NCBI GenBank assembly: GCA_050287845.1
Contig: JBNKCR010000129.1
Span: 7,364 to 71,363 of the forward strand
From: Polyangia bacterium
GTDB lineage: Bacteria > Myxococcota_A > Polyangia > JAAYKL01
Direction: 5' to 3'
DNA length: 64,000 bases
Each line of letters opens with the position of its first letter. The first letter of the stretch is position 1. A model generated the notes under the pieces. It saw only the letters and a list, made by a program, of their open reading frames with translations, was not told where the DNA came from and did not search any database. Below, piece after piece: positions 22,918-62,444 of the stretch. The translations under genes were made by a program, and so were the position numbers.

Positions 22918-23317
22918 TATATTGGTTCCTTTCAATTTGTTTTCAGGTCCCGGTTCCATTCGGGGCGAATACTCCATAAAAAATCACAGAATTTTCAGAG
23001 TTCCAGTATCCCGACAGCAAGTGAACAGCGCAGGAATAGTGACATTATTTATGCAAAATGCTGTTTTTCGGAAACGCGACGACTGCGTCGAAAAACATTC
23101 CACGCTGGTTGGTTTCAGTCTGATTGTCGCGTCGGATGCGGATTCGGAGCATATTGACTCCATGCGGATTGTCTAATAAGGAACCCATGAGAAACTGGGC
23201 TTCTGAGCATCTTTTTTTGTAAAGACATCTCAGGGGAAAATGGTAGGATGCCGTTTTTCTGAAAATCAGAAAATCACAATGTATGAACATTCGCAAACTG
23301 GAACATAGGCAACCTGC

Positions 23318-25612
23318 GTGAGTGACGATTCGAAAATTAATGAAGTGATAGCAGAGGAGCAGGCGCTCCTCTCAAAAGTAGTAGTTCATCTGACAACCTC
23401 CTCCAGAAAATCCAGTGTTTACGCCGATTATGATGCGGAATTAATCGAACTTCGGGATGCCCTGGCCGAAGCATTGCCTGAAGATGTACCGTCTCTTGTC
23501 GAGCAGATGACGCGTCTGCAGGCCATTGCGGCACAGCGGGGTCAGGGAGAAGATGTACCGGTGGATCCGGCAAGTCCGTATTTCGGCCACATGCAATTAG
23601 AAGAGGATGGCGAAATTCGGGATGTTCTCCTTGGCAAGCGTACCTACATTTCACCGGGGGATGGCATCCGTATCGTGGATTGGCGAAACGCGCCCGTGAG
23701 CCGTATGTATTACTGCTACGACGAGGGCGATGATTATGAAGAGAGTTTTGGCGGCAAGGTGCGCAGCGGCACTATTTCCACTCGCCGATCGATTACCATC
23801 ACCCGGGGCCAGTTGAGGCGCGTGGATTGTCCCCTGGGGACGTTGGTGAAAAAGGGGGAAGAGTGGATTCGGCTGCGAGAGGCCGGTGCAAAACTTTCAG
23901 GGGGACAGGGCAGTGCCATTCGGGGAACGCGGACGGGGAAATTGGGAGTGGATGCCTATGGCGACTTCAGACAGGACAAGCATTTGCCTGAGATTTCGGC
24001 CCTGCTCGACAAGGATCAGTTTGCACTGATTTCAAGTGATGAGGATGAGCTGCTTGCGGTTCAGGGAAGTGCGGGTTCCGGAAAAACCACAGTGGGACTT
24101 CATCGCATTGCGTATCTGGCATACAGCAGAACAGCTAAAGTGAAGCCATCGAATACTGTCATCATCGTATTGAACAGCGCGCTGGCATCGTACATTGCGG
24201 ATGTGTTGCCGTCTCTTGGGGTTCGCGGGGTCAAGGTCTGGACGTTTGAAAACTGGTGCTCGCGTCTGAGAAAACGGCACATCCCCGGTCTGCCGTCTTT
24301 ATACAGCGAATGGACGCCATCCATTGTGTCCCGTGTGAAAAAGCACCCGGCGTTGCTTCGCATTCTGGATGACTGGGTGGACATGCAGGACGAGACTCTG
24401 ACTGAGAAGATGCTGAAAACGGTCAGCGGTTACAATGATGCTGCCAGGGTGGAAAAAGCATGGAAAACCATTCAACGTCTGCCCATTGAGATTCGGAGGA
24501 GACGGATGCTCAAGTGGCTCGATGGCGAAGCGCGGATTGGGAGAGATACCGGTGATGGTCTTGATATGAAAACCGCGATTGCCCTCGATTCAGCGCTGCA
24601 GCGGATGGGGGAGGTGACAGATGATGTGGTGAATGACTGGGCTGATCTGTTTACGGATAAACGCCAGTTGAAGCATATGTTCGAAACCCACGCCCCGGCG
24701 GAATTTACGGAGTCGGAGCTGGATCGTGTTCATCAATGGTGCACAGATGCATATAAAAAAATATTTGATCAGATGGACGATGATGGCGAAGAGACGATTG
24801 AGGAAGATGACCGCGCAACTATTGACAGGGAAGACGACGCCATTTTGCTCCGACTTTATCAGCTGAAAAAGGGTTGGCTGCGGGAAGGGGGAAAACGTAT
24901 CGAATATGACCACATGATGGTTGATGAAGTGCAGGACTTCAGTGCGCTTGAAGTGCGGGTGTTGATTGGCGCTGTAGGGCAGAACCGTCCGATAACCCTT
25001 GCCGGAGATACAGCGCAGAAAATTGTTCGGGAAGGCGGATTTGATAATTGGGAAGGTTTCATTGACGACCTCGATGTTCAGAATGCCAGACTGGAGCCGC
25101 TTAAGATTGCATATCGGTCCACCATTGAGGTGATGGAAGTGGCGAGAGCCGTGCTCGGACCCCTTGCGGGAGATGAATCGGTGGCCACCCGTCATGGCGC
25201 CCCGGTGGAGGTTCACCAATTTTCAGATCCGGGGCAGGCGGTAGATTTTCTGGGTACCTCGCTTCGGGAACTGTTTCTCAGGGAGCCTCTGGCCAATGTG
25301 GCGATTATTGCCCGGCACGTGAACCAGGCAAAACTGTACTATCAGGGATTGAAGAAGGCGGAAATTCCCAGATTGCGTCTGGTTGTGGAACAGGATTTCT
25401 CTTTTACCCCCGGTATCGAAGTCACTGAAATCCGGCAGGTAAAAGGGCTGGAATTCGATTATGTGGTGATGGTGGAGTGTAATGAGGATTCCTACCCGGT
25501 CACCGACGAAGCCCGGCATCTGTTGCACGTGGGAATGACCCGTGCGGCTCACCAGTTATGGCTGATAACTACCGCGAATCCGTCTCAGCTCATCCCGAAG
25601 AATCTTCTTTGA
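23318..25612 (+). CDS. HelD-like UvrD-family helicase (RNA-polymerase-associated helicase IV type)
   Basis: 764 aa; GTG start; N-terminal region with IVDWRNAPVSRMYY motif; Walker A GSAGSGKTTVGLHRIAYL; C-terminal helicase motifs (LLHVGMTRA). Confidence 0.75.
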   Translation: MSDDSKINEVIAEEQALLSKVVVHLTTSSRKSSVYADYDAELIELRDALAEALPEDVPSLVEQMTRLQAIAAQRGQGEDVPVDPASPYFGHMQLEEDGEIRDVLLGKRTYISPGDGIRIVDWRNAPVSRMYYCYDEGDDYEESFGGKVRSGTISTRRSITITRGQLRRVDCPLGTLVKKGEEWIRLREAGAKLSGGQGSAIRGTRTGKLGVDAYGDFRQDKHLPEISALLDKDQFALISSDEDELLAVQGSAGSGKTTVGLHRIAYLAYSRTAKVKPSNTVIIVLNSALASYIADVLPSLGVRGVKVWTFENWCSRLRKRHIPGLPSLYSEWTPSIVSRVKKHPALLRILDDWVDMQDETLTEKMLKTVSGYNDAARVEKAWKTIQRLPIEIRRRRMLKWLDGEARIGRDTGDGLDMKTAIALDSALQRMGEVTDDVVNDWADLFTDKRQLKHMFETHAPAEFTESELDRVHQWCTDAYKKIFDQMDDDGEETIEEDDRATIDREDDAILLRLYQLKKGWLREGGKRIEYDHMMVDEVQDFSALEVRVLIGAVGQNRPITLAGDTAQKIVREGGFDNWEGFIDDLDVQNARLEPLKIAYRSTIEVMEVARAVLGPLAGDESVATRHGAPVEVHQFSDPGQAVDFLGTSLRELFLREPLANVAIIARHVNQAKLYYQGLKKAEIPRLRLVVEQDFSFTPGIEVTEIRQVKGLEFDYVVMVECNEDSYPVTDEARHLLHVGMTRAAHQLWLITTANPSQLIPKNLL

Positions 25613-25805
25613 AACAATTTGTTGATTTTTTTTGAAACAGTTTGTTACACCGGTGGGCAGATGAGTTATATCCGTAACTGAAATGAATCACTGTGACGCT
25701 GGGGGTACGGTGTGATGGCAGCGGCTTCCTGATTTGGCGATGTATATGCACGCGAGATAACCGAATCGTCGCATGTATTGTGCACAGGGAAGGATAATAA
25801 CCGCC

Positions 25806-36840: not shown

Positions 36841-36964
36841 TGGTGTTTTCCTTTCACGAATCCACACGCCGATTTCGCCAGTGTGCGCACGTGTGGGGGC
36901 GGCAATTGCCAACCGTACAGAAAGTTTAGGAAAGAAGACTTGTTGCGTAAAGTGAATCTATGTA

Positions 36965-37005: not shown

Positions 37006-37902
37006 ATGGACCATGGTGATTTACGAAATTTTATTGCCCTTGCTGAAACACTGCATTTTGCAAAAGCGGCAGCGCGGGTGCACATCAGTCCCTCCGCGCT
37101 CACCCGGGGAATTCAGCGGCTGGAATCCGAGGTGGGCCATACCCTCTTTGCCCGGGGAAACCGACATGTGAAGCTTACCCCGGCGGGGCGGACTTTTCTT
37201 ACTTACGCCGAAGGGGTGCTGGCGGACTGGGAGACCTGTCGTGCCACCCTGCAGAAAAAGGGCGACGTGGTGGAGGGCTCCCTCTCCATCTACAGTTCGA
37301 TTACCGCAGTGTACACCATTCTTTCCGCAGTGCTGCGTCCCTTTCGCAATCGATATCCGGCGGTACAGGTGAATCTGTCCACTGGCGCGGCGGCGGATGC
37401 CATTGGCAGGGTGCGAGACGGTCTGGCGGATTGTGCGGTGGCGGCTATGCCGGAGACGCTGCCTGCCTCGGTTTCTTTTTTGAACCTCACCACCACGGCC
37501 CTGGTGTGTATCGCCCCGGTGGGATTCAGGCGGATTCCCCGATTCAATCCGGCGGGGGGAGTGGATTGGCAGCGTACCCCCATCATTATGCCGGACAGAG
37601 ATGCGGCGCGAACCATGCAGCAGAAATGGTTTCTGGCCCAGGGCATTGCGCCGTTGATTTTTGCGGAAGTGGCCGGAAATGAAGCCATCATTGCCATGGT
37701 CAGCCTTGGATTCGGTGTGGGGATTGTTCCGGAAATCGTGCTGAATCAGAGTCCATTGCGGGAAAAGGTGCAGATCCTCAATATTTTGTCACCATTGCCC
37801 CCGTATGCCATCGGTGTTGTCTACGCAACCCGCCGGGAGACGGACCCCAGAATTGCCGCCTTCTGCGACGTTGCCCGGGAAACTGCCCTGGGAACCGGTT
37901 GA
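37006..37902 (+). CDS. ilvY: LysR-family transcriptional regulator IlvY
   Basis: 298 aa; N-terminal wHTH (LHFAKAAARVHISPSALTRGIQRLE); divergent from ilvC as in enterobacteria; collinear with E. coli IlvY by eye. Confidence 0.8.
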   Translation: MDHGDLRNFIALAETLHFAKAAARVHISPSALTRGIQRLESEVGHTLFARGNRHVKLTPAGRTFLTYAEGVLADWETCRATLQKKGDVVEGSLSIYSSITAVYTILSAVLRPFRNRYPAVQVNLSTGAAADAIGRVRDGLADCAVAAMPETLPASVSFLNLTTTALVCIAPVGFRRIPRFNPAGGVDWQRTPIIMPDRDAARTMQQKWFLAQGIAPLIFAEVAGNEAIIAMVSLGFGVGIVPEIVLNQSPLREKVQILNILSPLPPYAIGVVYATRRETDPRIAAFCDVARETALGTG

Positions 37903-37919
37903 AGCGCGGGAGTATCCGC

Positions 37920-38456
37920 TTATTCAACTTTTATAAAGCGGTCCGGGGAAACATTGCAGACGGGACAATCTTCGGTGGGTTCTCCCACGTGCACATATCC
38001 ACAGACGGAACATACGTAATAATCGCTTTCCCGTTCATCGAGCATGTGGTCAATGGCGCTCCGGTACAGTTTGCCATGCACCTCTTCGGCATCCCGCGCC
38101 TGAGAAAAGCTGATTTCCGCAGCGCGGTTCCCCTCCTCAATGGCAGTTTTGATGAACCTGGGATAAATGCCTTCGCTGATTCGGGTTTCGCTTTCAAAAC
38201 TCTCCTGGAGATTCTCCTGGGTGGATTTAATGACGCGCAGGATGCGCAGATGTTTCAGGGCGTGAATCTCCTCCGCGGCACTGATGGCGCGGAACAGACG
38301 AGCCATCTGGGGATATCCCTCCCTATCCGCCTTTTCGGCAAACCCTTTAAGACGCAACGCTGCCGTTGCTTCCCCGACAAACGCTTCGTAAAGATTGTCC
38401 TCGGTTTTCTGTTTTTCCGGTTTGAGTTTCAAAGCTTCCATTTCCTGCTCCATCAT
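37920..38456 (-). CDS. rbr: rubrerythrin
   Basis: 178 aa; ferritin-like diiron four-helix region with E-x-x-H pairs, then C-terminal rubredoxin-like CSVCGYVH...CPVC. Confidence 0.85.
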   Translation of the reverse strand: MMEQEMEALKLKPEKQKTEDNLYEAFVGEATAALRLKGFAEKADREGYPQMARLFRAISAAEEIHALKHLRILRVIKSTQENLQESFESETRISEGIYPRFIKTAIEEGNRAAEISFSQARDAEEVHGKLYRSAIDHMLDERESDYYVCSVCGYVHVGEPTEDCPVCNVSPDRFIKVE

Positions 38457-38527
38457 TTGCCATCGGTATATTGGTGATACCCGGCGATTTTATCCATGTC
38501 TGTTGCCATTGAAATATGAGTTTATTG

Positions 38528-38564
38528 CGCTGCTAACTGGTATAGTAATACCAGTTAGCAGAAT
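38528..38564. promoter_or_regulatory. perfect 13-bp inverted repeat (TGCTAACTGGTAT-N4-ATACCAGTTAGCA), candidate operator upstream of rubrerythrin
   Basis: Read directly from the sequence; about 75-105 bp upstream of the rbr start and followed by a TATAAT-like hexamer; position approximate. Confidence 0.4.
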
Positions 38565-38989
38565 TACTATAATCACAGATTCCGGATTCTCACCTGAATT
38601 TGCGATAAAATGTGTACTTTTTTCAGTGGCACACTGCGGCACAGTCGCCGAATCGGTGTTCAAACCGAATTCATCTTTAAATTCAGGCACATAACATAAA
38701 TGGAGCTAAGCAATCGGCAGTGGAATAGCACTTGCATCCGGAGTGGGCGTATAAAAAAGCCATCTCGCGGACCAGACGCTTTATTGGCCGAAACGGCCAT
38801 CCCGGGTTCGCCCGTACCGCAGGAGGGGTAAAAATTGCCATGGTACGGGCGAACCCATATTTCAGACACCCCGGTTCAGATTCCCGCAGATAATCCGCCC
38901 ATACTGTTGACGTTGCTCACCGGATTTCTTAGGTATCGCATCCGGACAGATATGCGCGGTGCGAAGAAAACCGGTGGGGATGAAGGCCT

Positions 38990-41077
38990 ATGACACAGAA
39001 CAGAACGCAGACTGAAGAAAAGCACTATCTCGATACCATACAGGGCAAGCTGAAAACGGCCTATGCATCGCTGGACCATCGGGTGAACCGGTACGCAAAG
39101 GAAATCCAGGAGCAGAAAACATATCTGTGGGAGCAGCGCAGCGACATGGATCATGCGGAAAAGGTCTCTTCGAGGCAGGCAGCGCTGCAGATGGTTCGGA
39201 GCGGAGAAATGGCGCAGAAAAGCCAGTCCCGGATAGCCCGGCTGATTCAGTCGCCCTGGTTCGGTCGAATCGATTTCAGACGCACGCCATCCGCCGATTC
39301 GTCGCGAATGATATATGTGGGAGTTCACTCCTTCTCCGACGATGACACTGGCAATATTTTCATCCACGACTGGCGCGCCCCCGTGTCCACCATGTTTTAC
39401 GACTTTGAACTCGGTCCGGCCCGATACGATTCTCCGGACGGCCTGATTGACGGAGAGCTCACCCTGAAACGTCAGTTTCGAATTCGCAACGGCGAAATGG
39501 AGTTCATGCTCGAAAGCGGGCTGAACATCATGGATGACGTTCTCCAGGAGGAACTCAGTCGCACATCGGATGAGCGGATGAAAAACATTGTGGCCACCAT
39601 TCAGCGGGATCAGAATGCCATCATTCGAAACGAAGACGCCGACGTGCTGATTATTCAGGGGGTTGCCGGGTCGGGGAAAACATCCATTGCCCTTCACCGG
39701 ATAGCGTTTCTTCTTTATCGTCACCGGGAGACATTATCATCGAAAGATATCCTCATTATTTCACCCAATCGGGTGTTCGGGGATTTTATCGCCAACGTGC
39801 TGCCGGAATTGGGCGAAGAACAGATCGCGGAGCTGGGTATGGACGACCTCGCCGACGAGCTGCTGGAGCGCAAAATAAAGTTTCAGACTTTTTTTGAAGA
39901 AACCCTGGCCCTGATGGAAAAAGGCGATGATGCGCTGCGGCAACGCATTGCGGCGAAATCAACGGTGGACTTCATCCGAAAGCTCGACGCGTATATCGCC
40001 CATGTGGAATCCACCCGTTTCGCGGCCACGGATGTATGGATTGGCAACTATGCGGTGCCCGCCTGGGTTGTCGAGCAGGCTTTCAGCAAGCGGCCGGATC
40101 TTCCGCTGACAAAGCGAATCGGATGGGCGGCAGAAGTGGTGGTGCACGAAGTCTGGGTGAAGTACCGGTATGAAGTCCCGGCGAAGGAGCGGGCGCAGCT
40201 CAAACGGGATATTGGCAAAATGGTTAAAAAATCGACGTTGCGGGCCCTGTACAGGGAATTCTTCGCCTGGCAGGGGAGGCCGGAGCTGTTCAAAGCGGGG
40301 CCTCGGGGGAAGTTGGAACACGCGGACGTGTATCCGTTGATATATCTGAAAATAAAAGTGGAAGGCATTTCTTTGCCCTATCCGCAAATCAGACATCTGC
40401 TGGTGGATGAAATGCAGGATTATACACCGGTGCAGTATGCGGTACTCGGCAAACTGTTTTCGTGTGCCAAAACGATTCTCGGCGATTCGTCCCAATCTGT
40501 GAATCCCTACAGCTCGTCGAAATCAGAAACCATCGGCGAGGTGTTTGCGTCTGCTGAATGTGTGCAGCTCCAGAAGAGTTATCGGTCCAGCTATGAAATT
40601 ACCCGGTTCGCCGGCGCCATGTTTCCGGACTTGAATATCGAAGCGATTGAGCGCCACGGTGAATCGCCGAATGTGCGGCCGTGCAAATCCCGGAAAGAGG
40701 AGATGGACACCATACAGACAGAGCTCCGTCACTTTAAACAGGGGAGCGCACGAACTATTGGCGTCATCTGTAAAAGCCAGAAACAGGCGCAGAAACTGTA
40801 TAGCGAAATTGTAACGAATTTTCCCGAGGCGCAATTGCTCACGGAAAAAAGCAATGCATTCAAAAAAGGTATCATCGTTGCGGCGGTGCACATGTCAAAG
40901 GGACTCGAATTCGACGAGGTGCTGCTGCCCAATGCATCTGCCGAAAATTATGGCAATCGGATGGATCGTCATCTGCTGTACGTGGCCACGACGCGGGCCA
41001 TGCACCGACTGACCCTGACGTACTCCGGATTGCCATCTCCCTTTATTCCCGAACCACCGCTGAACGAATCAGAGTAG
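38990..41077 (+). CDS. HelD-like UvrD-family helicase, second paralog
   Basis: 695 aa; IHDWRAPVSTMFY motif; Walker A GVAGSGKTSIALHRIAFL; C-terminal LLYVATTRA. Confidence 0.75.
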   Translation: MTQNRTQTEEKHYLDTIQGKLKTAYASLDHRVNRYAKEIQEQKTYLWEQRSDMDHAEKVSSRQAALQMVRSGEMAQKSQSRIARLIQSPWFGRIDFRRTPSADSSRMIYVGVHSFSDDDTGNIFIHDWRAPVSTMFYDFELGPARYDSPDGLIDGELTLKRQFRIRNGEMEFMLESGLNIMDDVLQEELSRTSDERMKNIVATIQRDQNAIIRNEDADVLIIQGVAGSGKTSIALHRIAFLLYRHRETLSSKDILIISPNRVFGDFIANVLPELGEEQIAELGMDDLADELLERKIKFQTFFEETLALMEKGDDALRQRIAAKSTVDFIRKLDAYIAHVESTRFAATDVWIGNYAVPAWVVEQAFSKRPDLPLTKRIGWAAEVVVHEVWVKYRYEVPAKERAQLKRDIGKMVKKSTLRALYREFFAWQGRPELFKAGPRGKLEHADVYPLIYLKIKVEGISLPYPQIRHLLVDEMQDYTPVQYAVLGKLFSCAKTILGDSSQSVNPYSSSKSETIGEVFASAECVQLQKSYRSSYEITRFAGAMFPDLNIEAIERHGESPNVRPCKSRKEEMDTIQTELRHFKQGSARTIGVICKSQKQAQKLYSEIVTNFPEAQLLTEKSNAFKKGIIVAAVHMSKGLEFDEVLLPNASAENYGNRMDRHLLYVATTRAMHRLTLTYSGLPSPFIPEPPLNESE

Positions 41078-41394
41078 TAGATTCTGTATATGTTCTTGCC
41101 ATCGTAAGCCCGCCGGAACAGCGGTCGGCCCACCCAGGGCAGTACAAATATAAATTTTTTATTCGATTGGAAAATATCTCATTCAATGGGACGATAGAGT
41201 GACGATTCGCAAAAAATAAACTACCGACTCCACAAAATGAAAAAAATGGTGTACATGAGGATTACGTTGCTGATTTATGCGAAAAAATCATCACATCCCT
41301 ACCGGCATTCTGCTTTAAGCTGCGCTGGTTAGATTACGTTACTCACATATCTGAAGCTTTTGTATCAGACATTGACCCCGGGCAATTTGGAGGA

Positions 41395-42747
41395 ATGACT
41401 ATGGATAAATTTTTTGAAACACTCAGTAGAGAAGTCAGGGAGAACGATGCCATTTCGAATGATATGTTCAAGAAGTTCAATGTCAAACGGGGGCTGCGCA
41501 ACGAAGATGGCAGTGGCGTGCTGGTGGGTCTTACGGAAATCTCAAGTGTTATGGGGTATACGAAATACGACGAGGAAGTAGTTCCTGTTGAAGGCCGTCT
41601 GTTCTATCGGGGATTCGATGTGAAAGACCTTGTTACCCTCGATGTCGAGCTTCAGGCGAAGCATTCTCTTTTCGAAGAAACGGCATATCTTCTTCTGGCG
41701 GGCAAACTTCCAGATCAGAAGGAACTTGCGTATTTCCGTCAATTGCTGGCATCCAATCGCAGATTGCCGAAAAATTTTGTGCGGGATCAGCTCTCCACAT
41801 TCCGGACGCCTGATATTATGAACGCACTGGCACGTTCGGTGCTCACTCTGTATATGTCGGATTCAAACCCGGACGACACAGCTCTTGACAATCTGCTTCG
41901 GCAGTCGGTGGAGCTGATTGCCAAAGTGCCATCCATTGTGGCCTATGCGTATCGGGTGTATCTGGAAGCTTTCAAACAGCAGAGTCTGATTATTCACAAA
42001 TCGAATCCGGAATACACCACCGCGGAGAACTTCCTGCATCTGATTCGAGATAACGGTCAGTTCACCGATACCGAAGCCCGGGTTCTCGATACGGCCCTGG
42101 TGCTGCATGCCGACCACGGTGGCGGAAACAACTCCACGTTTGCCGCGCGGGTTGTCACGTCCAGTGGCACGGACACCTACTCGGCCATCGCCGCAGCGCT
42201 TGGTTCGTTGAAAGGGCCTCTGCATGGTGGCGCCAATCTCTACGTGATGAAAATGATGGACAGTATTAAAGCCGATGTATCGGACTGGAATGACAACGAG
42301 CAGCTGCGCAGTTACATCCTGAAAATATTGAATGGAGAGGTGGGGAACGGCTCCGGAAAGGTTTATGGATTCGGGCATGCCGTGTATACCCTGAGCGATC
42401 CCAGAGCCAAAATCCTTAAACAATACGCTGAACAACTGGCCAATGAGAAAAATCGAACCGAGGAATTTGCGCTGTATGCCAAGTTGGAAGAAATTGTCCC
42501 CGAGGCATTTGCCGAGTTTAAGGGCGGCGGGAAAGTGGTGGCTCCGAACGTGGATTTCTACAGCGGATTTGTGTACGACTGCATGGGGATTCCAAGGGAA
42601 GTATATACCCCTCTGTTTGCCATGGCGCGCGTCGCAGGCTGGGTGTCCCATCGCATAGAGGAAATACTGGTTCAGCGGCGCATCATGCGTCCCGCTTACA
42701 AAAACGTCACGACCATCCGAACTCATACGCCGCTCAATAAACGATAG
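41395..42747 (+). CDS. citrate synthase (or 2-methylcitrate synthase)
   Basis: 450 aa; signature GFGHAVY and HADHGGGNNSTF active-site region; ADHEG-type catalytic His context. Confidence 0.85.
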   Translation: MTMDKFFETLSREVRENDAISNDMFKKFNVKRGLRNEDGSGVLVGLTEISSVMGYTKYDEEVVPVEGRLFYRGFDVKDLVTLDVELQAKHSLFEETAYLLLAGKLPDQKELAYFRQLLASNRRLPKNFVRDQLSTFRTPDIMNALARSVLTLYMSDSNPDDTALDNLLRQSVELIAKVPSIVAYAYRVYLEAFKQQSLIIHKSNPEYTTAENFLHLIRDNGQFTDTEARVLDTALVLHADHGGGNNSTFAARVVTSSGTDTYSAIAAALGSLKGPLHGGANLYVMKMMDSIKADVSDWNDNEQLRSYILKILNGEVGNGSGKVYGFGHAVYTLSDPRAKILKQYAEQLANEKNRTEEFALYAKLEEIVPEAFAEFKGGGKVVAPNVDFYSGFVYDCMGIPREVYTPLFAMARVAGWVSHRIEEILVQRRIMRPAYKNVTTIRTHTPLNKR

Positions 42748-43144
42748 ACTCAATCAATTCAGAATCCGCTCGTCTGGCCCGGTTTGGGGCGTCACAATCA
42801 TCGGTTCACTTTCTGTTGAAAAAATAGCGGCAACGTACAATCAGGTTTCTGCATACTCCATGCAGCAGTTTTCGGATAACTTTCCCGTGAATTGCCACCT
42901 GCATTCAGCTTTCGCACACCCTGTAAAAAGCACAGTGCACGATACAGATAGTCTGGGCTTCAATTGTAAAACACTTTTTTTAATTTGCAGGCCCATCCGG
43001 AGTGTGACTGGCATTTCCTGTGCAATGAACACGAACATACTCTTTGCCGGCGAGGAAACCGGGATGCGTTCCGTTTTTGCAGCGCGTCTCAAACAAACAC
43101 TTTTACATTTCCTTAACTATGGGGAAAGACCAGGAGAAAGAATT

Positions 43145-43807
43145 ATGAAAAGAAGAAGTATTTTTGCATTGGTATTGTCGACGATTCTGTCATTTTCAGC
43201 ATTGGCTTCTGCACAGGAAATTATTCCGTCGTTTCAACTTCGTCTCGACAATGAAATTTATCCCATGACTCAGAGTGACCCACAAAGTGAGCCACAGACA
43301 TGGACCGCCGTGTTTTATCTGAACGAGGAGGAAGCTGAGCGAAATGAAGGGGTTCAGGCCAATATTGACTTCCAGATTGGGGATTTGACAGGGGGCACCA
43401 GCTGGTCCTATTGCTACTATCTGGAGGAGAATGTTTCCGTTCCCGAAACCGGACTGATTACAGAGAAAGGTGATATCAATCAGGTGCCTTTCCGCCTGTC
43501 TGCGGACGACCAGATTCCGGGCCGGTACAAAGCAGTACTTAACGCCAGTAGCGGTGCCATCGATTTCACATATCTGGATGAAGGCACCCTGGGAGACGTG
43601 AACCTTGATGGGGTTGTGGATATCGTAGATTCGCTGCTGATTTCTCAGGACTACGTCCACACCCCCATTACCTCTACCTACGAAACGGATCTTGCGGATG
43701 TTAATTGTGATGGAAGCGTGAATGTCGTTGATTCATTGCTGATTGCCCAGGCGTACGTTCAGGTTCAAAGCGCCATCGACACAATCGCGGAATGTGCCGC
43801 CAACTGA
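43145..43807 (+). CDS. secreted protein with C-terminal dockerin-type tandem repeat
   Basis: Start at MKRRSIFALVLSTILSFSALASA (signal peptide, GGAGAAAG RBS upstream; ORF opens at 42860). C-terminus has two Ca-binding-loop-like repeats, DVNLDGVVDIVDSLLISQDYV and DVNCDGSVNVVDSLLIAQAYV. Confidence 0.7.
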   Translation: MKRRSIFALVLSTILSFSALASAQEIIPSFQLRLDNEIYPMTQSDPQSEPQTWTAVFYLNEEEAERNEGVQANIDFQIGDLTGGTSWSYCYYLEENVSVPETGLITEKGDINQVPFRLSADDQIPGRYKAVLNASSGAIDFTYLDEGTLGDVNLDGVVDIVDSLLISQDYVHTPITSTYETDLADVNCDGSVNVVDSLLIAQAYVQVQSAIDTIAECAAN

Positions 43808-44002
43808 AGCGCTGACCACTTAACTCTCCATTTTGATTCGCCTGACCCCGTTTTCTCAATACAATTGAAGCTGACGTTATCAGATGCAGAAATGCGCAGT
43901 CAGTGCCACCAAACAAAATCATTCCGAGCGTATGTGTTGGGGCACTGATGGGAGCAAAGGTGTGGGCGTTCCCACAGCGCATGACGAGGGAAAAAATGGG
44001 GG

Positions 44003-45199
44003 TCAGAACTGGGAGAAAAACGCCCATGTATCAGCGGGAACCCAGGAAGACGCGCCTCCCGGCGTTGGTGTGTTGCCACCGACGAAGATGCAGGCCCGTA
44101 CGGGGTACCCCTGTTGGCAACCTTCGAAATCAACGCACTCCGGTGTATTACCGCTACTATCAGTGGGGTCGGGCATGGCCTCGGCAAATGCATCCCGGCC
44201 CATGCCCGGGTCCGGCGCTATGCACCCGTTTGTCTTCGCAAAATCCTGCAGCGGTGGTACGCCGTACCCCGGATATTTGCAGACACTGTCGTTGATGCCA
44301 TGGGTCATATAATAGGCAACGGGACTGCTGTGCTGCTCGCAGCCACTCATTGGGCCCCCGGAATGAGCCGCAACCGCGCGAATCACATCCCCCATGGCGC
44401 AGGCCATGGCATAGGACATGGAACCGCCCATACTGAAACCCTCGCAGAAAATGCGCGATTTATCGATGCAAAGTTCGTCCTCCATTTTTGAGATCAGCTG
44501 ACGGGAAAATTCGACATCATCCCCATTGCGGTTCCACCAGGCATTGTTCAGCCCCTGGGGGGCGACAAAAATCGTACTCCCCTCGGCCAGATTCCATAGA
44601 CCATAATAGGAGCCCTGACTGACCCAATCCGACGTTTCGCCCATCGAATGATACGCCATCATTAAACGATATGGTTTATTGTTGTCGTAATCATCCGGAA
44701 TCTTGAGGTTGTATGAGCGGCTTGAGCCCGAGACATCTATGGATAGTCCGTTTCCACTCGAAAGCGTCGATGTTTTCCCGCAGCCGGCGCTTTTGTCGGG
44801 ATCACCATCTGTATCGGTATCCGTGTCGGTAACCATTTCCGTTTCCGTTTCCGTTTCCGTTTCCGTTTCCGTTTCCGTTTCCGTGTCCGTGTCGGTATCG
44901 GTATCGGTATCGGTGTCTGAACCCGTGTCGGAATCCGAATCAGAGTCTGAATCCGTGTCGGAGTCTGAATCCGTGTCGGAGTCGGAATCCGTGTCGGAGT
45001 CGGTATCCGAATCTGTATCTGTATCTGTATCGGAATTGGTATCGGTAGCTGTATCGGTATCCGAATTTGAATCGGCATCACTGCTGTTGATGTCACTAGT
45101 CTTATCTTGATTGACTAGTTCTGTATCGACGCACGTTGCCAGGGCAAATGAGATAATCATCAGAAAAAACAGATGTTTCCAGTCAGATATGCAATCCAT
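44003..45199 (-). CDS. secreted esterase (PHB-depolymerase / feruloyl-esterase-like alpha/beta hydrolase) with Asp-Thr/Asp-Ser/Glu-Thr repeat linker
   Basis: Start at MDCISDWKHLFFLMIISFALATC (signal peptide; ORF opens at 45298); about 100-aa acidic repeat tract; catalytic domain with GFSMGGSMSYAMACAMGD nucleophile elbow and several Cys. Confidence 0.75.
   Translation of the reverse strand: MDCISDWKHLFFLMIISFALATCVDTELVNQDKTSDINSSDADSNSDTDTATDTNSDTDTDTDSDTDSDTDSDSDTDSDSDTDSDSDSDSDTGSDTDTDTDTDTDTETETETETETETETEMVTDTDTDTDGDPDKSAGCGKTSTLSSGNGLSIDVSGSSRSYNLKIPDDYDNNKPYRLMMAYHSMGETSDWVSQGSYYGLWNLAEGSTIFVAPQGLNNAWWNRNGDDVEFSRQLISKMEDELCIDKSRIFCEGFSMGGSMSYAMACAMGDVIRAVAAHSGGPMSGCEQHSSPVAYYMTHGINDSVCKYPGYGVPPLQDFAKTNGCIAPDPGMGRDAFAEAMPDPTDSSGNTPECVDFEGCQQGYPVRACIFVGGNTPTPGGASSWVPADTWAFFSQF
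44797..45094 (-). repeat. coding hexanucleotide microsatellite encoding (D-T/D-S/E-T)n
   Basis: Runs of gtatcggtatcggtgtc and gtttccgtttccgtttcc units on the plus strand inside the esterase gene. Confidence 0.8.
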
Positions 45200-45378
45200 A
45201 AAAAGTCTCCCTTCTTCGGTAAACCCTCTAACCGCAACAGAACTTCGCTGCGGTGATGTATTCTCCCGCTGTCTCGGTAGGTTGCCGTGCCAATACAAAG
45301 TGTTGAGGAGAAGGAGAAATGGGTTGGGATATCTGAACTATCGGCGGATGTCAAGATAGTTGTCGCATGAGTGTTGCA

Positions 45379-46224
45379 TCATGCGGCCTCCTTAATTGAG
45401 ACTTTTGCCGGATTGAGGGACACCGTTTCTACCGGGATCCAGTTTCGTGTTTTTCCAGTCCAACGGTTTGGTTCTTTTTGTTTTGCACTCTCATAAACCA
45501 AATGTCGTTGACGCAAAATTTCTTTATCATCACCATTATGGCGCGCCTCGGGGGTAACGAAGCGGATGCCGCTGTGTAAGTGTTTTGTATTGTACCAAAT
45601 CACAAATTTCTCCATCCAGCGCCTTGCTGAATCGATGGATTCAAACGGCTTGTGAGGGTATTCTGGTCTGTACTTTAATGTTCTGAAGATTGACTCGGAA
45701 TAGGGGTTATTATCGCTTACTCCCGGGCGACTGAAAGATGCCATCACGCCAGGCTGGTCAAGTGTCGCAAGCATTGTGGCGCCTTTCATCGGGCCGCCGT
45801 TGTCTGAATGCAAAGAAAGCTGATTTGCATCTACACCATTGGCGTCAATAATCTGGACAATCATGGCAGATGAAATTTCCATACACTCACGGTCGTGAAT
45901 TTCCCATCCAATAATCTTTCTGCTCCAAACGGCCAGCACAAGATACGGATAATAAAACGTTCCTCTGACCGCTGCAGGCAAGTACGAAATATCCCAACTC
46001 CACACCTGATTGGGGCCCGTTGCCAAAAGTTCATCGGGTCGATTGTGCGTTGCGGGTTTTGAGGATTCTCGATGTTGCTGTTGTCCCTCCTCACGAAGAA
46101 TCCGATACATGGGAGACTCGGATGCCACGTACACGCCGCTATCAGCCAACCTGGGTACAATTTGATAGTTCCCTTGAAGGGTTGACCGATACGCCCAAAG
46201 AAGCGCTGACAATGGGCATCGCAT
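45379..46224 (-). mobile_element. IS3-family transposase remnant (OrfB integrase-core part only; OrfA and the 5-prime part missing)
   Basis: Integrase-core (rve) signature PNQVWSWDISYLP...YYPYLVLAVWSRKIIGWEI and the DDE region; no HTH OrfA frame upstream; transposase-like similarity starts only about 30 codons into the ORF. Confidence 0.7.
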
Positions 46225-46575: not shown

Positions 46576-47448
46576 CTACATGTGCCTGGCGAACAGTTTG
46601 CTCATGGCATCCCGGGAGATGGGGGGCTGTTTTACGAGTGGTGTGGTCTCGATTTGGGGAATCCGGTCCTGGAAAGCGTTGCCGCTGTCATCGTGGTAAA
46701 AGAGCCCCACCGGAATCTCGTCGCCCCAGGCCATGGCTTTTTCAATGGCCCGGATGCGATCGTTGGTTGGATAATCCGGGTCATCGTTGATATTCACGAT
46801 GCGGTCTTTGTACCACTTGAAGGTGTTCACTTTGTTCATGCTCACACAGGGTTGGAGAATTTCGATGTAACTGAGGCCTCTGTGCTTCACGCCCATCTGA
46901 ATCAATTCGGACAGATGTTTGGTGTCGCCTGAAAAACTGCGCGCCACAAAACGACATCCAAGGGTCAGCGCCAGCGCCGGTCCGCGCAGGGGATACGATA
47001 TCACGCCACGGGGCTGAAGCCTGGTCTGCAGTCCCATGTCACTGGTGGGGGACGCCTGCCCCTGGGTCAATCCATAAATCTGATTGTTGTGAACCATCAG
47101 CGTCACATCAATGTCCCTGCGGAGGGTATGCAGAAAATGTCCGCCACCTTCACCATACATATCCCCATCCCCGGAGTTCAGGAGAATGGTCATATCTTCA
47201 TTGGCCAGCTTGGCGCCGGTGGCGGCAGGCAGTGCACGTCCATGAAGACCACAGTATGCGTTGGCCGTGATGTACTGGGGCAGCTTGGCTGCCTGACCGA
47301 TTCCAGCCATCATCATCACTTCGTGGGGTTCTTTGCCCAGCGCTTCCAGTGCGTCCTTTACGGCGGCAAGAATGCCAAAATCGCCGCAACCGGGGCACCA
47401 TGCGGTTTCTTTTACTGTACAGATATTGAACGATTTGCACTCACTCAT
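46576..47448 (-). CDS. 2-oxoacid:ferredoxin oxidoreductase, beta (TPP-binding) subunit
   Basis: 290 aa; N-terminal Cys cluster (CPGCGDFG); TPP-binding GDG motif (NSGDGDMYGEGGGH); overlaps the alpha gene stop/start. Confidence 0.85.
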   Translation of the reverse strand: MSECKSFNICTVKETAWCPGCGDFGILAAVKDALEALGKEPHEVMMMAGIGQAAKLPQYITANAYCGLHGRALPAATGAKLANEDMTILLNSGDGDMYGEGGGHFLHTLRRDIDVTLMVHNNQIYGLTQGQASPTSDMGLQTRLQPRGVISYPLRGPALALTLGCRFVARSFSGDTKHLSELIQMGVKHRGLSYIEILQPCVSMNKVNTFKWYKDRIVNINDDPDYPTNDRIRAIEKAMAWGDEIPVGLFYHDDSGNAFQDRIPQIETTPLVKQPPISRDAMSKLFARHM

Positions 47449-49148
47449 TTTACCACCTCCAGAACCGCTTCGGTCAGGTCTTCGACAATATAGGGCCGAC
47501 CATCGTATTTCGTCATGATTTCGGGCTTGATGCCGGTGCTCTGAGCGATGATGGCTGCCAGTTGACCCGTACTGTTGCCTTCCACCGAGATGATGCGTTT
47601 GCTTTTTTCAACCGCGCTGCTGAACTGTCTGGTTGGAAATGGCCAGATATCCGTGAGATGCACGTGATTGAGATGCACCCCCCGTTCTTTCAGAATGGCC
47701 ACGGACTCTGACAGGGTATCTCCAGTGGAACCCCAGCTGACCACTGCCACTTCAGCGTCCCTTGTGCCACTGGTCTGCACATTGTACGTGGCACTCAGTC
47801 GCGCGGTTTTCCGTGCGCGCTTTTCAACCATAGCCTTTCTGATTTTCGGATCATCCGTAATGTGGCCGGTCTCCACATGTTCGTGGCTGTCGGTGAGCAT
47901 CAGATGTTTGCTCTGCCCCGGGTACGCTCTGGGAGAAATGCCTGAATCCGTAATGGCATATCGTTTGTACTCAGTCATCTGAGACAGTGTTCTGGTTGAG
48001 ATCATCGACGTTTCTGTGGGAATCCGATCCAGATTGTACTGATCAACCGTGAAGAACGAATCCGCAATATGCTGGTCAGAAAGCACAATCACCGGAATCT
48101 GGTATCGGTCGGCGATATTGAATGCCCTTGCGGTGATGTAAAAAATATCTTCCGCGTTGGTGGCGGCCAGAACCGCCCGGGGGAAATCCCCATGGCCGGT
48201 GAACGTGGAGAAGAGCAGATCGGCTTGCTCCTGACGGGTGGGAAGCCCGGTTCCAGGACCGCCGCGCTGGCAGTTGACAATGACAAGAGGCACCTCTGAA
48301 ATACCGCAGAGGGAAATCGTTTCACTCATAAGCGCCATACCGCCACCGGATGTGGATGTCATGGCGCGAACGCCCGCCATGGACGCGCCCACTGCCTGAT
48401 TCACCGCGGCGATTTCGTCTTCTGCCTGTTCTGTGACGATGCCTGCAGTCACCTCGGCATTGGCCAGGTAGGTGATAATACCGGTGGAAGGCGACATGGG
48501 ATAGCAACTGATGAATTTCATGTTCGCCGAAAGCGCTCCCAGCGCAGCGGCTTCGTTTCCGTTGAGAAACAATCTGGATGGCGCGCCGTCAATGGTTGGA
48601 AGCGAACCCAGTCTGCCCGCATGGGCTTTTCCCCGGGTGTTGCCTTCCGCTGCCGCACCGATGTTACCGGCCGAGATGGTCTCGTCCCTGAAACGCTCCC
48701 TGAAAAGGGTATTGAGAAGTTCAATATCCAGACCAAGGACACCCAAAACGAATCCCACCGCTGCGGAGTTGGAGTAAATGGGCTTCTTTCCAGTCTCCAT
48801 CGCAATCTGTCTGAGTGGGACATCGATAATCCGGGGATCGGCGATGTTCGCCTTCAGTGTAGCATTGTCAACGATCGCAATGCCATCTTTGTGGAGCGCT
48901 TCAATGTCGCTCTCCATTTTTTCCCTGTCGAGGGTGACCAGTAAATCCACCTGCTTTTTCATCGCCCACACGGGGACATCGCTGATGCGCAGTTGAAAAA
49001 AGTTATGTCCGGCGCGAATTCGCGACTCTGAATCCTGCACGCCAAACACGTGGTAACCGGCCCGCACGCAGGCCTTTCCCAGCAGTTTTCCGGTACTCAG
49101 AAGTCCCTGTCCGGCTGCTCCAGCCAATCTGATATTAATGTCGGTCAT
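47445..49148 (-). CDS. 2-oxoacid:ferredoxin oxidoreductase, fused gamma-alpha subunit
   Basis: 567 aa; N-terminal gamma-type domain (LAGAAGQGLLSTGKLL) fused to an alpha-type domain (CYPMSPSTGI, GGPGTGLPT). Confidence 0.85.
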   Translation of the reverse strand: MTDINIRLAGAAGQGLLSTGKLLGKACVRAGYHVFGVQDSESRIRAGHNFFQLRISDVPVWAMKKQVDLLVTLDREKMESDIEALHKDGIAIVDNATLKANIADPRIIDVPLRQIAMETGKKPIYSNSAAVGFVLGVLGLDIELLNTLFRERFRDETISAGNIGAAAEGNTRGKAHAGRLGSLPTIDGAPSRLFLNGNEAAALGALSANMKFISCYPMSPSTGIITYLANAEVTAGIVTEQAEDEIAAVNQAVGASMAGVRAMTSTSGGGMALMSETISLCGISEVPLVIVNCQRGGPGTGLPTRQEQADLLFSTFTGHGDFPRAVLAATNAEDIFYITARAFNIADRYQIPVIVLSDQHIADSFFTVDQYNLDRIPTETSMISTRTLSQMTEYKRYAITDSGISPRAYPGQSKHLMLTDSHEHVETGHITDDPKIRKAMVEKRARKTARLSATYNVQTSGTRDAEVAVVSWGSTGDTLSESVAILKERGVHLNHVHLTDIWPFPTRQFSSAVEKSKRIISVEGNSTGQLAAIIAQSTGIKPEIMTKYDGRPYIVEDLTEAVLEVVK

Positions 49149-49337
49149 GAGGTCTCGGGCTCCATTTTCTGTTGATATACATTGAGAATAGTATCTCGCT
49201 TTCTATATTCGCAATCACCAGAGTTAAACACATCTCAGGCTGAGTGCAACCTCACCGTCGTAACATCCGGCCTTCATCGGACAGATGCTTCGGGAATTAC
49301 ATCAGACATGAAAGTAAACATGATGCTGCGCGGCCAA

Positions 49338-49853
49338 TCAGGCGCCATCGAGACCATGACGCTCTGATGCGTCAAACCAGGCTTCGGGGTCCTGCAGATA
49401 CGCAAGGGAATCTTCGATGGAAAGCTGGTGATCATGTTCGATTTTTTTCAGAAAACCGAAGAATTCCTGTTCTCTGGGGTTCTTGCATTTTTTCACCAGA
49501 TCCGCATAGAAGTCTGCGGCGTCTTTTTCAAACTGAGCTGCCGCTTTCAATGCTTCAATATCACTGTCGTCGTGGGCTTTTGTTTCTTCAGCCTTGTAGT
49601 CGAGTTTTTCGAGCTCTTCTTTTACATTGCTGTCCTGCATTTCCAGGTTCACATCTTCTGGCCATGCGCCATCCGCCAGGAGCGTACTGTGGAGTTTGTT
49701 AATCCACCGTTTGTGGTCTTCCTCTTCCTCCGCCAGCGTTTCAAGCAGACGTTTCACCACGGGATTGGTCGAACGGGCCGCCTCTTTCAGATAGTAATCT
49801 TTTTCGCGTTGCTCATTGTCCATTGCAAATTTTATTGAAGAAATTTTATCCAT
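49338..49853 (-). CDS. ferritin-like / rubrerythrin-like diiron domain protein
   Basis: 171 aa; paired E...E-x-x-H helices (TLAEEEEDHKRW, KKIEHDHQL); no rubredoxin module. Confidence 0.6.
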   Translation of the reverse strand: MDKISSIKFAMDNEQREKDYYLKEAARSTNPVVKRLLETLAEEEEDHKRWINKLHSTLLADGAWPEDVNLEMQDSNVKEELEKLDYKAEETKAHDDSDIEALKAAAQFEKDAADFYADLVKKCKNPREQEFFGFLKKIEHDHQLSIEDSLAYLQDPEAWFDASERHGLDGA

Positions 49854-49896
49854 AACTTTGCTCCTTTACAAAAATCGATGTCCACAAAAGTGAAAA

Positions 49897-50385
49897 CTAG
49901 TTTTCCACCAGCACAACCTCATCGTATTCGACTTCAAATCGCAGTTTGTGCTTTGCTTCTTCCTGGGCCAGCGCAAGAAACAGCGCTTTAATCTCGGGGG
50001 TATCCACTCGACTCGCCAAATCCATGTACAGGCGGAATGCCTGTTTCTCCTGTTGCATGGCAAACAGCAGAATATCCTGGTACGACGGGGATTCACCCAG
50101 CTTCACAGGAACTGTATAATCCGAGAGCTTCATATCGGATGTCGCCGAAGCGCTCTCCAGTACATCTTCGCCTTCCAGAACGTCCTCAAGCTTTTTCCGG
50201 TGTTCCATTTCTTCTTCAGCGTACTCCAGAAAGATTTTTCTGATTTCATTGTTCTTCGCCCTGGCGGCCAGATCGGTATAGAGTACCGCTGAGCGCTGTT
50301 CAAGAGATATGGCATACTCCAGGATGTCCTTTGTGCTCAGGTGTCCGGTCATCGTTATATTCTCACCATTACGTAAGACAGGCAC
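49897..50385 (-). CDS. ferritin-like / rubrerythrin-like diiron domain protein
   Basis: 162 aa; YAEEEMEHRKKL and LAQEEAKHKLRF motifs; start may be the internal MTGHLSTKDI (50352). Confidence 0.6.
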   Translation of the reverse strand: MPVLRNGENITMTGHLSTKDILEYAISLEQRSAVLYTDLAARAKNNEIRKIFLEYAEEEMEHRKKLEDVLEGEDVLESASATSDMKLSDYTVPVKLGESPSYQDILLFAMQQEKQAFRLYMDLASRVDTPEIKALFLALAQEEAKHKLRFEVEYDEVVLVEN

Positions 50386-50441
50386 GGGTGTTGCGCAAAA
50401 CGCTTACGGATTCGGGCAACACTTTCGCGCCTGCGGATTCA

Positions 50442-50984
50442 TCAGAAATATCGTTTCAACAGTCCGGCAAATGCCTGACCGTGCCTTGCTTCGTCTTTGC
50501 ACATTTCATGTACGGTATCGTGAATGGCATCGTAATTCAGCTGTTTGGCTTTGGTTGCGATGTCCTTTTTCCCCTGGCAGGCGCCGTGCTCCGCAGCGAC
50601 GCGCATTTCCAGGTTTTTCTTTGTGTCTGCCACAAGCACTTCACCCAGAAGCTCAGCAAACTTGGCCGCATGTTCCGCTTCTTCGAATGCAATGCGTTTG
50701 TATGCTTCGGCAACTTCCGGATACCCTTCGCGTTCCGCCTGTCGGCTCATGGCGAGGTACATGCCCACCTCCGTGCATTCGCCCATGAAATTCTGACGCA
50801 ATCCTTCCAGTATTTCGGCGTCAACATCTTTGGCCACGCCAATGCGATGCTCATCCGCCCAGGTCATTCCGGTACCGGACTGCTCCTGAAATTTTTCTTT
50901 GGGGGCGCCGCATTGGGGGCATTTGTCCGGCGCACTGTCGCCTTCGTATACGTAACCACAAATGGTGCAAATGTATTTTTTCAT
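50442..50984 (-). CDS. reverse rubrerythrin (N-terminal rubredoxin-like, C-terminal ferritin-like)
   Basis: Start at [15 protein letters not shown] (ORF opens at 51005); CxxC...CxxC at the N-terminus (CTICGY...CPQCGAP), then a diiron four-helix region ([20 protein letters not shown]). Confidence 0.8.
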
Positions 50985-51065
50985 TTGATACTCCTCTTTT
51001 TTCAATCGGTTAATTGTTGTTGATGTGATTGCATCATTAATGTCTCCGCGCGTATTGTCAATCGC

Positions 51066-62365: not shown

Positions 62366-62444
62366 AAAATTAAATCTGAAGTTTAATTTTGTCTGATTTT
62401 GTTTTGGGGAACAGGAGATCTCCCCTGCTGGATGCATAAACCAT

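Follow-up and report, generated by a model that had tools for sequence, protein, structure and literature searches.

The window analyzed here is a 64,000-nucleotide (64-kb) stretch of contig JBNKCR010000129.1 from the Polyangia bacterium assembly GCA_050287845.1. Our subject within it is a gene, here termed helD, which encodes a Class I-type member of the HelD family of RNA polymerase (RNAP) recycling motor ATPases and is flanked on one side by a divergently oriented gene for a rubrerythrin-family protein (rbr) and on the other by the citrate synthase gene gltA (Table 1). The helD open reading frame (ORF) starts with an ATG, no earlier in-frame start being available, and, just as the first-pass annotation had it, codes for 695 residues featuring both IHDWRAPVSTMFY (residues 125-137) and GVAGSGKTS (residues 224-232). 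Its description of a divergent rbr across a long intergenic region also stands: the longest minus-strand rbr ORF spans 37920..38456, which leaves 533 bp to helD. However far that ORF extends, the true start of rbr is probably the ATG at 38441, because a GGAG Shine-Dalgarno sequence is kept in three strains, two upstream ATGs are lost in one of them (L099), and another pipeline likewise reports a 173-aa product; with the start thus moved, the intergenic region measures 548 bp. The rbr product, which has a C-terminal rubredoxin-like domain, falls under the NCBIfam cut-offs for both rubrerythrin and nigerythrin. The loci used for comparison come from two close strains (L098 and L099, the former being 98% identical to the window in Rbr and 92% in HelD), a very close strain (L081), a sister metagenome-assembled genome (MAG; GCA_016935665.1, with its helD locus L001 and a further locus, L095, bearing a Class III HelD), and other helD lineages (L082, L084/L085, L087 and L089).

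The protein passes the cut-off of the NCBIfam equivalog model NF041464 (HelD_BACSU) with 516.9 bits against a required 419, and stays below all other NCBIfam cut-offs by a wide margin, including those of the Class II models HelD_MYCSM (113.9 bits; cut-off 1051) and HelR (134.3 and 129.9 bits; cut-offs 750 and 1100). The best match in a sequence search of the PDB is the HelD of Bacillus subtilis (6wvk_H; E 2.8e-109). An AlphaFold (AF2) model of the product, computed from a 50-sequence alignment (A2) that also served to assess residue invariance, has a predicted local distance difference test score (pLDDT) of 84.9 and a predicted template modeling (TM) score of 0.78; when it was used to query structures with Foldseek, the top match was again 6wvk_H, which represents B. 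subtilis HelD bound to RNAP (E 3.4e-48; TM 0.70), with the HelD of Mycobacterium smegmatis ranking lower (TM 0.57). Because it both passes the HelD_BACSU cut-off and has a predicted fold matching the solved B. subtilis structure, the product is a member of the HelD family, a stronger statement than the “HelD-like helicase” of the first-pass annotation.

The domain architecture, with the B. subtilis boundaries of Newing et al. 2020 (PMC7749167) carried over through a phmmer alignment, comprises a secondary-channel arm, a split domain 1A, a clamp arm and an unsplit domain 2A; i.e., it is a superfamily 1 (SF1) layout wherein the clamp arm splits 1A in place of 1B, and 2A is continuous with no 2B. 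In the predicted structure, the two N-terminal helices that form the antiparallel coiled coil have block pLDDT values of 85-92. At their tip D54, E57 and K58 are invariant in the alignment, and the motif (D/E)MDH(A/V/I)EK is kept family-wide; the acidic tip of B. subtilis HelD is D56/D57 (Newing et al. 2020, PMC7749167). HelD proteins invariably keep a DWR core, mostly in the form DWR[A/S]P; the DWRAP motif bearing the Trp-cage tryptophan is found here without an extra residue in 120/120 of the best homologs (the motif census covered the best 120 for each of the two HelD proteins of the window). The GSGKT of the Walker A motif is invariant across the 50 aligned homologs, including K230, whose B. 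subtilis equivalent abolishes both ATPase and recycling activity when replaced (K239A; PMC7749167). The clamp arm, which is helical in the model, is among the least conserved parts of the protein, with 59-66% identity as against 88-92% in domain 1A-1.

Of the classes recognized among HelD proteins, Class III was described from Deltaproteobacteria and has as its hallmark a longer form of the motif, DWRX[A/S]P (Larsen et al. 2021, PMC8655204). The DWRAP of the helD product does not match this form, and its scores exclude the product from Class II/HelR by the curated model cut-offs. Its DWRAP motif, the long arm with a tip at residues 49-54, a HelD_BACSU score far above those of the Class II models and a TM score of 0.70 versus 0.57 are all features of Class I. 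That class is marked by DWR[A/S]P lacking any additional residue, a long secondary-channel arm, no PCh loop and closeness to the Firmicute proteins, and the call made here draws on motif, arm tip position, profile scores and fold match. The window also codes for another HelD, a comparator lying outside the helD–rbr locus, with the Class III-type motif DWRNAP, and 116/120 of its best homologs display DWRxAP. The first-pass annotation had called the two genes paralogs: both indeed belong to the HelD family, but their different class motifs and an identity of just 27-28%, over two blocks, indicate that they are not recent paralogs. This genome and the sister MAG therefore hold one HelD of either class; between the two genomes the Class III protein is 87% identical and the Class I-type protein 66%, and the context of the Class III gene (ccm/sigma-54-activator) is conserved. 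Where an organism has several helD genes, these are said to fall into its own usual class (Larsen et al. 2021, PMC8655204), and the co-occurrence of Class I-type and Class III genes departs mildly from this published description.

The nearest relatives of the helD product come from MAGs labeled Deltaproteobacteria, Polyangia, Desulfobulbaceae, Syntrophobacterales and Nitrospirae. Relatives at 50-57% identity are encoded in many Proteobacteria-like MAGs and in cultured isolates, among the latter Halomonas, Alkalilimnicola ehrlichii, Thioalkalivibrio, Salinisphaera, Fodinicurvata and Hymenobacter, and often go by the NCBI label “HelD family protein”. The 2021-2022 literature considered here assigned Class I HelD to Firmicutes and Bacteroidia only, with the helD genes of Proteobacteria still to be verified. 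That Class I-type HelDs occur widely across Proteobacteria-like lineages, cultured isolates included, modestly extends that literature; beyond annotation little is gained, helD being a further member of a known family and no new kind of protein. We also entertain, as a doubtful proposition, that a Class III and a Class I-type HelD motor are both stably maintained in this lineage, possibly dividing work between them. If true, it would offer a natural system for studying what the arm lengths and classes do, and how a long-armed Class I HelD operates on a Gram-negative RNAP, and the division of work could relate to different stalled states, different RNAP holoenzymes or protection against an RNAP-targeting toxin.

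By homology with B. subtilis HelD, we propose that the N-terminal coiled-coil arm would insert into the RNAP secondary channel with its acidic tip, while the arm inserted in domain 1A would press into the primary channel and the clamp would open. A stalled or post-termination RNAP would then let go of its nucleic acids, and the Walker A/B site would bind and hydrolyze ATP to power the cycle and the release of HelD. We infer both RNAP binding and recycling activity, as well as the use of the promoters predicted below; the product, an SF1-helicase-like ATPase, would act on RNAP and not as a DNA unwinder.

On the DNA side, a promoter-like motif, with a TTGACG hexamer and a TAGGTAT element separated by a 17-nt spacer, is situated 54-83 nt upstream of the helD ATG. 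The window shares a composite form, TTGAC(G/T)-N17-TAGGTATCG(C/T), with L082, L084/L085 and L089, each having it at the same position ahead of helD, and at that place L001 and L087 display TTGAC-N17/18-TA(T/A)TTT. The genes further upstream in the four motif-bearing lineages are a divergent rbr, a tandem gene for a 972/985-aa protein or a divergent DEAD helicase gene. A search of both strands of 1.1 Mb of fetched loci recovered the composite motif solely upstream of helD. The 53-nt helD leader (5′ untranslated region) is identical to that of L098 at 52/53 positions. From these sequence features, the most likely origin of helD transcripts is a proximal promoter that belongs to the gene itself (38907-38936), and such a promoter would in turn mean that it is probably regulated independently of rbr. 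Overall, we consider it likely, with good confidence, that 38990..41077 codes for a small Class I-type HelD that has its own proximal promoter and is probably regulated apart from rbr. The conserved motif also provides a concrete target for mapping helD expression in these bacteria.

Several points weigh against this picture. The TAGGTAT element is not a canonical TATAAT and has no T at position 6, and the motif could instead be where a transcription factor binds or where an alternative sigma factor directs initiation. In L098, a 157-nt insertion resembling a miniature transposable element with inverted repeats (MITE) splits the motif between the spacer and TAGGTAT; helD remains intact in that strain, and hence the motif is either dispensable or re-created there. 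This element (3209-3370 in L098, corresponding to ~38929/38930 in the window) ends in imperfect terminal inverted repeats of ~33 nt, comes with a duplication of 5 nt of target sequence (CTTAG) and is predicted to fold at -71.6 kcal/mol; no copy of it is found in the window. As for the protein, the Class I HelD of Firmicutes works with the delta subunit, which is not expected in these bacteria. A secondary-channel arm of B. subtilis length may or may not fit the host RNAP, whose rpoB and rpoC lie outside the window. The trigger-loop and beta insertions of Gram-negative RNAPs partly clash with HelD in models (Larsen et al. 2021, PMC8655204).

Another conspicuous element of the intergenic region, not mentioned in the first-pass annotation, is an inverted repeat, GGGTTCGCCCGTACC ... 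GGTACGGGCGAACCC, whose 15-nt arms match perfectly around a loop of 23 nt; it is unique in the window and sits 51 nt upstream of the -35-like hexamer of helD. It is 92% identical to L098 and 89% to L099, where all the DNA between rbr and helD averages 90% and 64%, and the loop is conserved too; in L098 its arms show one compensatory change, from G-C to A-T. It has no Rfam match and no U-tract, and no counterpart was found upstream of helD in more distant relatives. We see it as a candidate protein-binding site, insulator or hairpin. In the Joint Genome Institute (JGI) sample 3300077100, the helD promoter region, at the very spot of the L098 insertion, is flanked by the ends of two contigs, L081 beginning 31 nt upstream of helD and L099 inside the loop of this repeat; such contig ends fit a repeat or a strain-variable insertion breaking the assembly.

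Other readings of the intergenic DNA fell away. A 13-nt, 92% complementary repeat flanks 38510-38864, as might be seen in a MITE, but it is compatible with chance (~0.08 by estimate), and there is neither a target-site duplication nor any other copy. A 52-aa ORF (38835..38993, plus strand) opens with a TTG that AGGAGG precedes by 8 nt, in the loop of the 15-nt-arm repeat, and closes with a TGA that overlaps the ATG of helD (ATGA); we rejected it as a gene, since the helD promoter-like motif lies inside it and tblastx finds no homolog. A minus-strand ORF (38683..38841) was likewise rejected, being frame-shifted with respect to L098. No remnant of the 972/985-aa gene, which precedes helD in L082 and L084, was detected in the window, an Rfam scan of 37500-41600 at E<=1 gave no match, and inspection by eye of both intergenic regions found no match to the sigma-54 promoter consensus.

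Closer to rbr lies the palindrome that the first-pass annotation reported as perfect and of 13 bp; the perfect repeat is real, with the correction that its arms are 14 nt long and separated by a 4-nt spacer, CTGCTAACTGGTAT-AGTA-ATACCAGTTAGCAG. The window has only three perfect inverted repeats whose arms reach 13 nt or more, two of them within the rbr–helD intergenic region, versus a mean of 0.05 in 40 first-order Markov simulations of 64 kb; thus, two in a single region are far beyond chance. The palindrome begins 5 nt downstream of the -10-like TATAGT of a promoter-like site for rbr, which is 96% identical to L098 and 86% to L099 and is, with one other island, the best-conserved DNA between the two genes. 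As it directly follows this conserved element and lies 89-120 nt upstream of the rbr ATG (38441), as opposed to 429 nt upstream of the helD ATG, the palindrome most likely belongs to rbr, to judge from its placement. It may act in the DNA, as an operator that overlaps the point where rbr transcription begins, or in the rbr mRNA, as a stem-loop at its 5′ end. The simplest reading of the arrangement would be two independent back-to-back promoters, with the palindrome acting on rbr alone. Upstream of the rbr promoter-like site, an island kept in all three strains (ACTGTGCCGCAGTGTGCCACTGAAAAAAGTACACATTTT, minus-strand reading, within 38594-38699) includes TGTGCC-N4-TGTGCC, a direct repeat, and is a possible binding site for a transcription factor acting on rbr.

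The palindrome itself is 88% identical to L098 and 68% to L099, set against the 90% and 64% of the whole intergenic region. In L098 only inner arms of 9 nt remain, the outer changes being uncompensated, and in L099 the arms pair at 5/9 positions; in the sister MAG (L001) there is no similarity across the intergenic region and the palindrome is absent. The palindrome occurs only once in the window, the three other rubrerythrin-family genes lacking it upstream, and neither of the two intergenic inverted repeats nor the whole intergenic region recurs in the window or the 98 fetched loci. A metagenome scan for TAACTGGTAT-N4-ATACCAGTTA returned five matches on unrelated low-GC contigs (28-38% GC), two of them identical in sequence. 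A PerR/Fur-type operator was also considered: candidate delta-proteobacterial PerR boxes are 19-bp (9-1-9) sites, such as AATAGGAATCGTTCCTGTT (Rodionov et al. 2004, PMC545781), and we rejected this identity as the half-sites and spacing of the palindrome, compared by eye, differ from the published boxes and it has no second copy in the window.

The helD gene is under purifying selection. Relative to L098, its ratio of non-synonymous to synonymous substitution rates (dN/dS) is 0.116 overall, ranging from 0.02 in domain 1A-1 to 0.21 in 2A, with values of 0.033 and 0.133 for rbr and ilvC in the same comparison. The comparison with the very close strain L081 gives a dN/dS of 0.44 from few changes (25 non-synonymous and 17 synonymous), with 0.013 for gltA; values above 1 in two domains, based on small counts, had hinted at fast or positive evolution, a signal that is gone at the greater divergence of L098. 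The same substitution pattern bears on the proposal that the helD product is a HelR-like resistance factor guarding RNAP against a rifamycin-type or other RNAP inhibitor. The gene does code for a second HelD isoform beside the native Class III gene, its protein has diverged faster than the neighbors (66% versus 84-87% identity in the sister MAG), the excess of non-synonymous changes is seen between very close strains, and a conserved inverted repeat stands upstream of it. That repeat loosely recalls the rifamycin-associated element of Actinobacteria. Nevertheless, scores of 130-134 bits against HelR models with cut-offs of 750-1100, a dN/dS that is ordinary (0.12) at greater divergence and the lack of the repeat upstream of helD in more distant relatives make this proposal very improbable.

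The first-pass annotation had further suggested, from the layout, a possible co-regulation of helD with the oxidative-stress gene rbr, which would make the two a divergent pair under joint control by way of the palindrome between them. In keeping with this, the genes are divergent, the two longest perfect inverted repeats of the window lie between them, the rbr–helD–gltA order recurs in the sister MAG and in L098, and the window is rich in rubrerythrin-family genes. However, among 80 helD loci from other species, rbr adjoins helD in just one (1/80), that of the sister MAG, whereas helD relatives at 63-67% identity are preceded by the 972/985-aa gene, cstA, an efflux operon or a DEAD-box helicase gene; the linkage is thus lineage-specific, and the adjacency is unremarkable given that the window has three more rubrerythrin-family genes. 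The palindrome is also placed at a distance from helD, beyond the separate conserved promoter-like motif of that gene, is missing upstream of the three other rubrerythrin-family genes of the window and does not match the PerR boxes (PMC545781). Its absence from orthologous loci had been named beforehand as a finding that would overturn the suggestion, and, as detailed above, it is absent in the sister MAG, decayed in L099 and reduced in L098. We hence hold co-regulation through the palindrome to be very improbable and retain the picture of helD as a Class I-type HelD gene with its own proximal promoter.

A conventional SF1 DNA helicase of the UvrD, PcrA, Rep or helicase IV type, functioning in DNA repair or replication restart, is what several databases imply in calling relatives of the helD product “DNA helicase II/PcrA”, and Pfam indeed detects only the generic UvrD-helicase, UvrD_C and AAA_19 domains. 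Yet the equivalog models for these four helicases give 55-65 bits against cut-offs of 543-1144, the structures of UvrD, PcrA and Rep match at a TM of ~0.4 compared to the 0.70 of HelD, and the HelD-specific N-terminal arm and DWRAP are present along with the HelD arrangement in place of 1B and 2B, leaving this identity highly improbable; the correct name for the gene is Class I-type HelD family protein. The idea that the protein is the helicase part of an anti-phage defense system, e.g., the GajB of Gabija, can be given next to no credence, as the PADLOC GajB and other UvrD-type models match (E 1e-18 or weaker) merely in part and over the generic helicase core (<=64 bits versus 517 for HelD), with no GajA-like or other partner gene near a locus whose neighbors are rbr and gltA.

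Table 1. Positions of the genes, DNA elements and HelD domains described in the text (nucleotide positions are those of the window; residues are those of the helD product)
Feature	Coordinates	Strand	Residues or size	Basis
Class III-type HelD (DWRNAP) elsewhere in the window	23318..25612	+	764 aa	
rbr, rubrerythrin-family with C-terminal rubredoxin-like domain (longest ORF to 38456)	37920..38441	-	173 aa	Pfam PF02915 (Rubrerythrin) and PF21349 (RUBY_RBDX)
Palindrome, perfect inverted repeat	38530..38561	.	14-nt arms, 4-nt spacer	repeat search
rbr promoter-like site, GTGAGA, 16-nt spacer, TATAGT	38566..38593	-		consensus scan, 9/12 positions
Second perfect inverted repeat	38804..38856	.	15-nt arms, 23-nt loop	repeat search
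helD promoter-like motif, TTGACG, 17-nt spacer, TAGGTAT	38907..38936	+		54-83 nt upstream of ATG
helD, Class I-type HelD	38990..41077	+	695 aa	ORF, NCBIfam, PDB, AF2, Foldseek
Antiparallel coiled coil of the secondary-channel arm	38996..39250	+	3-48 and 55-87, acidic tip loop 49-54 (QRSDMD)	DSSP on AF2 model
DWRAP motif, Trp-cage tryptophan W128	39368..39382	+	D127-P131	invariant in alignment A2
Walker A, GVAGSGKTS (K230 = B. subtilis K239)	39659..39685	+	224-232	alignment, PDB match
Clamp arm in domain 1A	39836..40381	+	~283-464, ~182 aa	limits transferred from B. subtilis 292-538
Walker B, DEMQD	40406..40420	+	473-477	invariant in alignment A2
Domain: secondary-channel arm			1-194	transferred limits
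Domain 1A, split			195-282 and 465-536	transferred limits
Domain: clamp arm			283-464	transferred limits
Domain 2A, unsplit			537-695	transferred limits
Inserted gene, dockerin-domain protein	42860-43807			
Inserted gene, 431-aa protein	44003-45298		431 aa	
Inserted gene, rve-family integrase/transposase	45379-46224			
Rubrerythrin/ferritin-like gene	49338-49853	-		
Rubrerythrin/ferritin-like gene	49897-50385	-		
Rubrerythrin/ferritin-like gene	50442-51005	-		domains read from translation

We also recorded several features in the neighborhood. Upstream of gltA is a non-coding block of ~100 nt (41236-41350 in the window), with counterparts in L001 (8211-8323), L082 (5677-5771) and L084 (7231-7340), which is 92%, 89% and 83% identical to these three lineages, while gltA coding DNA is 74-76% and helD 69-71% identical. 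It contains a nearly invariant core of ~70 nt, travels with gltA and not with helD, and has no conserved ORF (a 1-nt indel intervenes). An Rfam scan of 41080-41420 at E<=10 returned just chance matches to eukaryotic microRNAs and small nucleolar RNAs, and we rejected a structured RNA, there being no covariation and folding z-scores of ~0 on both strands; a dense regulatory region acting at the DNA level is more likely. Further downstream, the minus strand at 46576-51005 has genes for the beta and alpha subunits of a 2-oxoacid:ferredoxin oxidoreductase followed by the three rubrerythrin/ferritin-like genes, the last of which (50442-51005) codes for a protein with an N-terminal rubredoxin-type CxxC...CxxC, read from its translation (a “reverse rubrerythrin”). 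The order gltA–oxidoreductase–rbr–rbr is common to the window and L082, with three genes (42860-46224) inserted between gltA and the oxidoreductase genes relative to L082.

On the other side of rbr, an imperfect palindrome centered on GGCAATTGCC (36892-36919), between the divergent genes for a class II ketol-acid reductoisomerase (ilvC) and an ilvY-like LysR protein, could be an IlvY operator. The third perfect inverted repeat of the window (62362-62394) is AGACAAAATTAAA / TTTAATTTTGTCT, with 13-nt arms and a 7-nt spacer. The Class III helD is followed by a gene for a PAS/sigma-54 activator (25773-27194), and this pair, together with the upstream ccmF–ccmA–ccmB, is kept in the sister MAG (L095); a 460-aa ORF (21595-22977, minus strand) with no Pfam match lies between ccmB and the Class III helD and is extra relative to that locus.

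Among known systems, E. coli RapA (Swi2/Snf2) is a functional analogue, an ATPase that recycles DNA-trapped RNAP (PMC8666675); its fold and family are unrelated, and the helD product matches it neither in sequence nor in structure. The Class II proteins, M. smegmatis HelD and actinobacterial HelR, share the family and the general fold (TM 0.57) but differ in having a short N-terminal arm and, in the clamp arm, a PCh loop, and the helD product attains 114-134 bits where their models require 750-1100. Class III HelDs, such as MXAN_5482 of Myxococcus xanthus, have the same overall HelD plan and host group, the helD product differing in the absence of the inserted motif residue. The closest parallels are in Class I. 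With B. subtilis HelD (YvgS; PDB 6WVK, 6ZCA), it shares the secondary-channel arm, the split 1A, the clamp arm, the unsplit 2A, the DWRAP Trp-cage, the Walker A and B motifs and an acidic tip at a similar number (52-54 versus 56-57). However, structure-based identity is only ~30%, and the B. subtilis clamp arm spans 247 aa, making that of the helD product ~65 aa shorter. The hosts differ as well, that of the helD product being an uncultured organism labeled Deltaproteobacteria, in which the Firmicute delta subunit is not expected and whose RNAP probably has Gram-negative lineage insertions. In size class and Class I motif, the helD product resembles both the small Class I HelDs of Bacteroidia (671-693 aa), which likewise occur in Gram-negative hosts, and the second isoforms of Bacillus cereus and clostridia (689-709 aa; Larsen et al. 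2021). Its relatives at 50-53% identity belong to Marinilabiliales, Hymenobacter, Halomonas, Thioalkalivibrio and other cultured isolates; whereas the published range of Class I is Firmicutes and Bacteroidia, the closest kin of the helD product are encoded in the MAGs labeled Deltaproteobacteria, Polyangia, Desulfobulbaceae, Syntrophobacterales and Nitrospirae.

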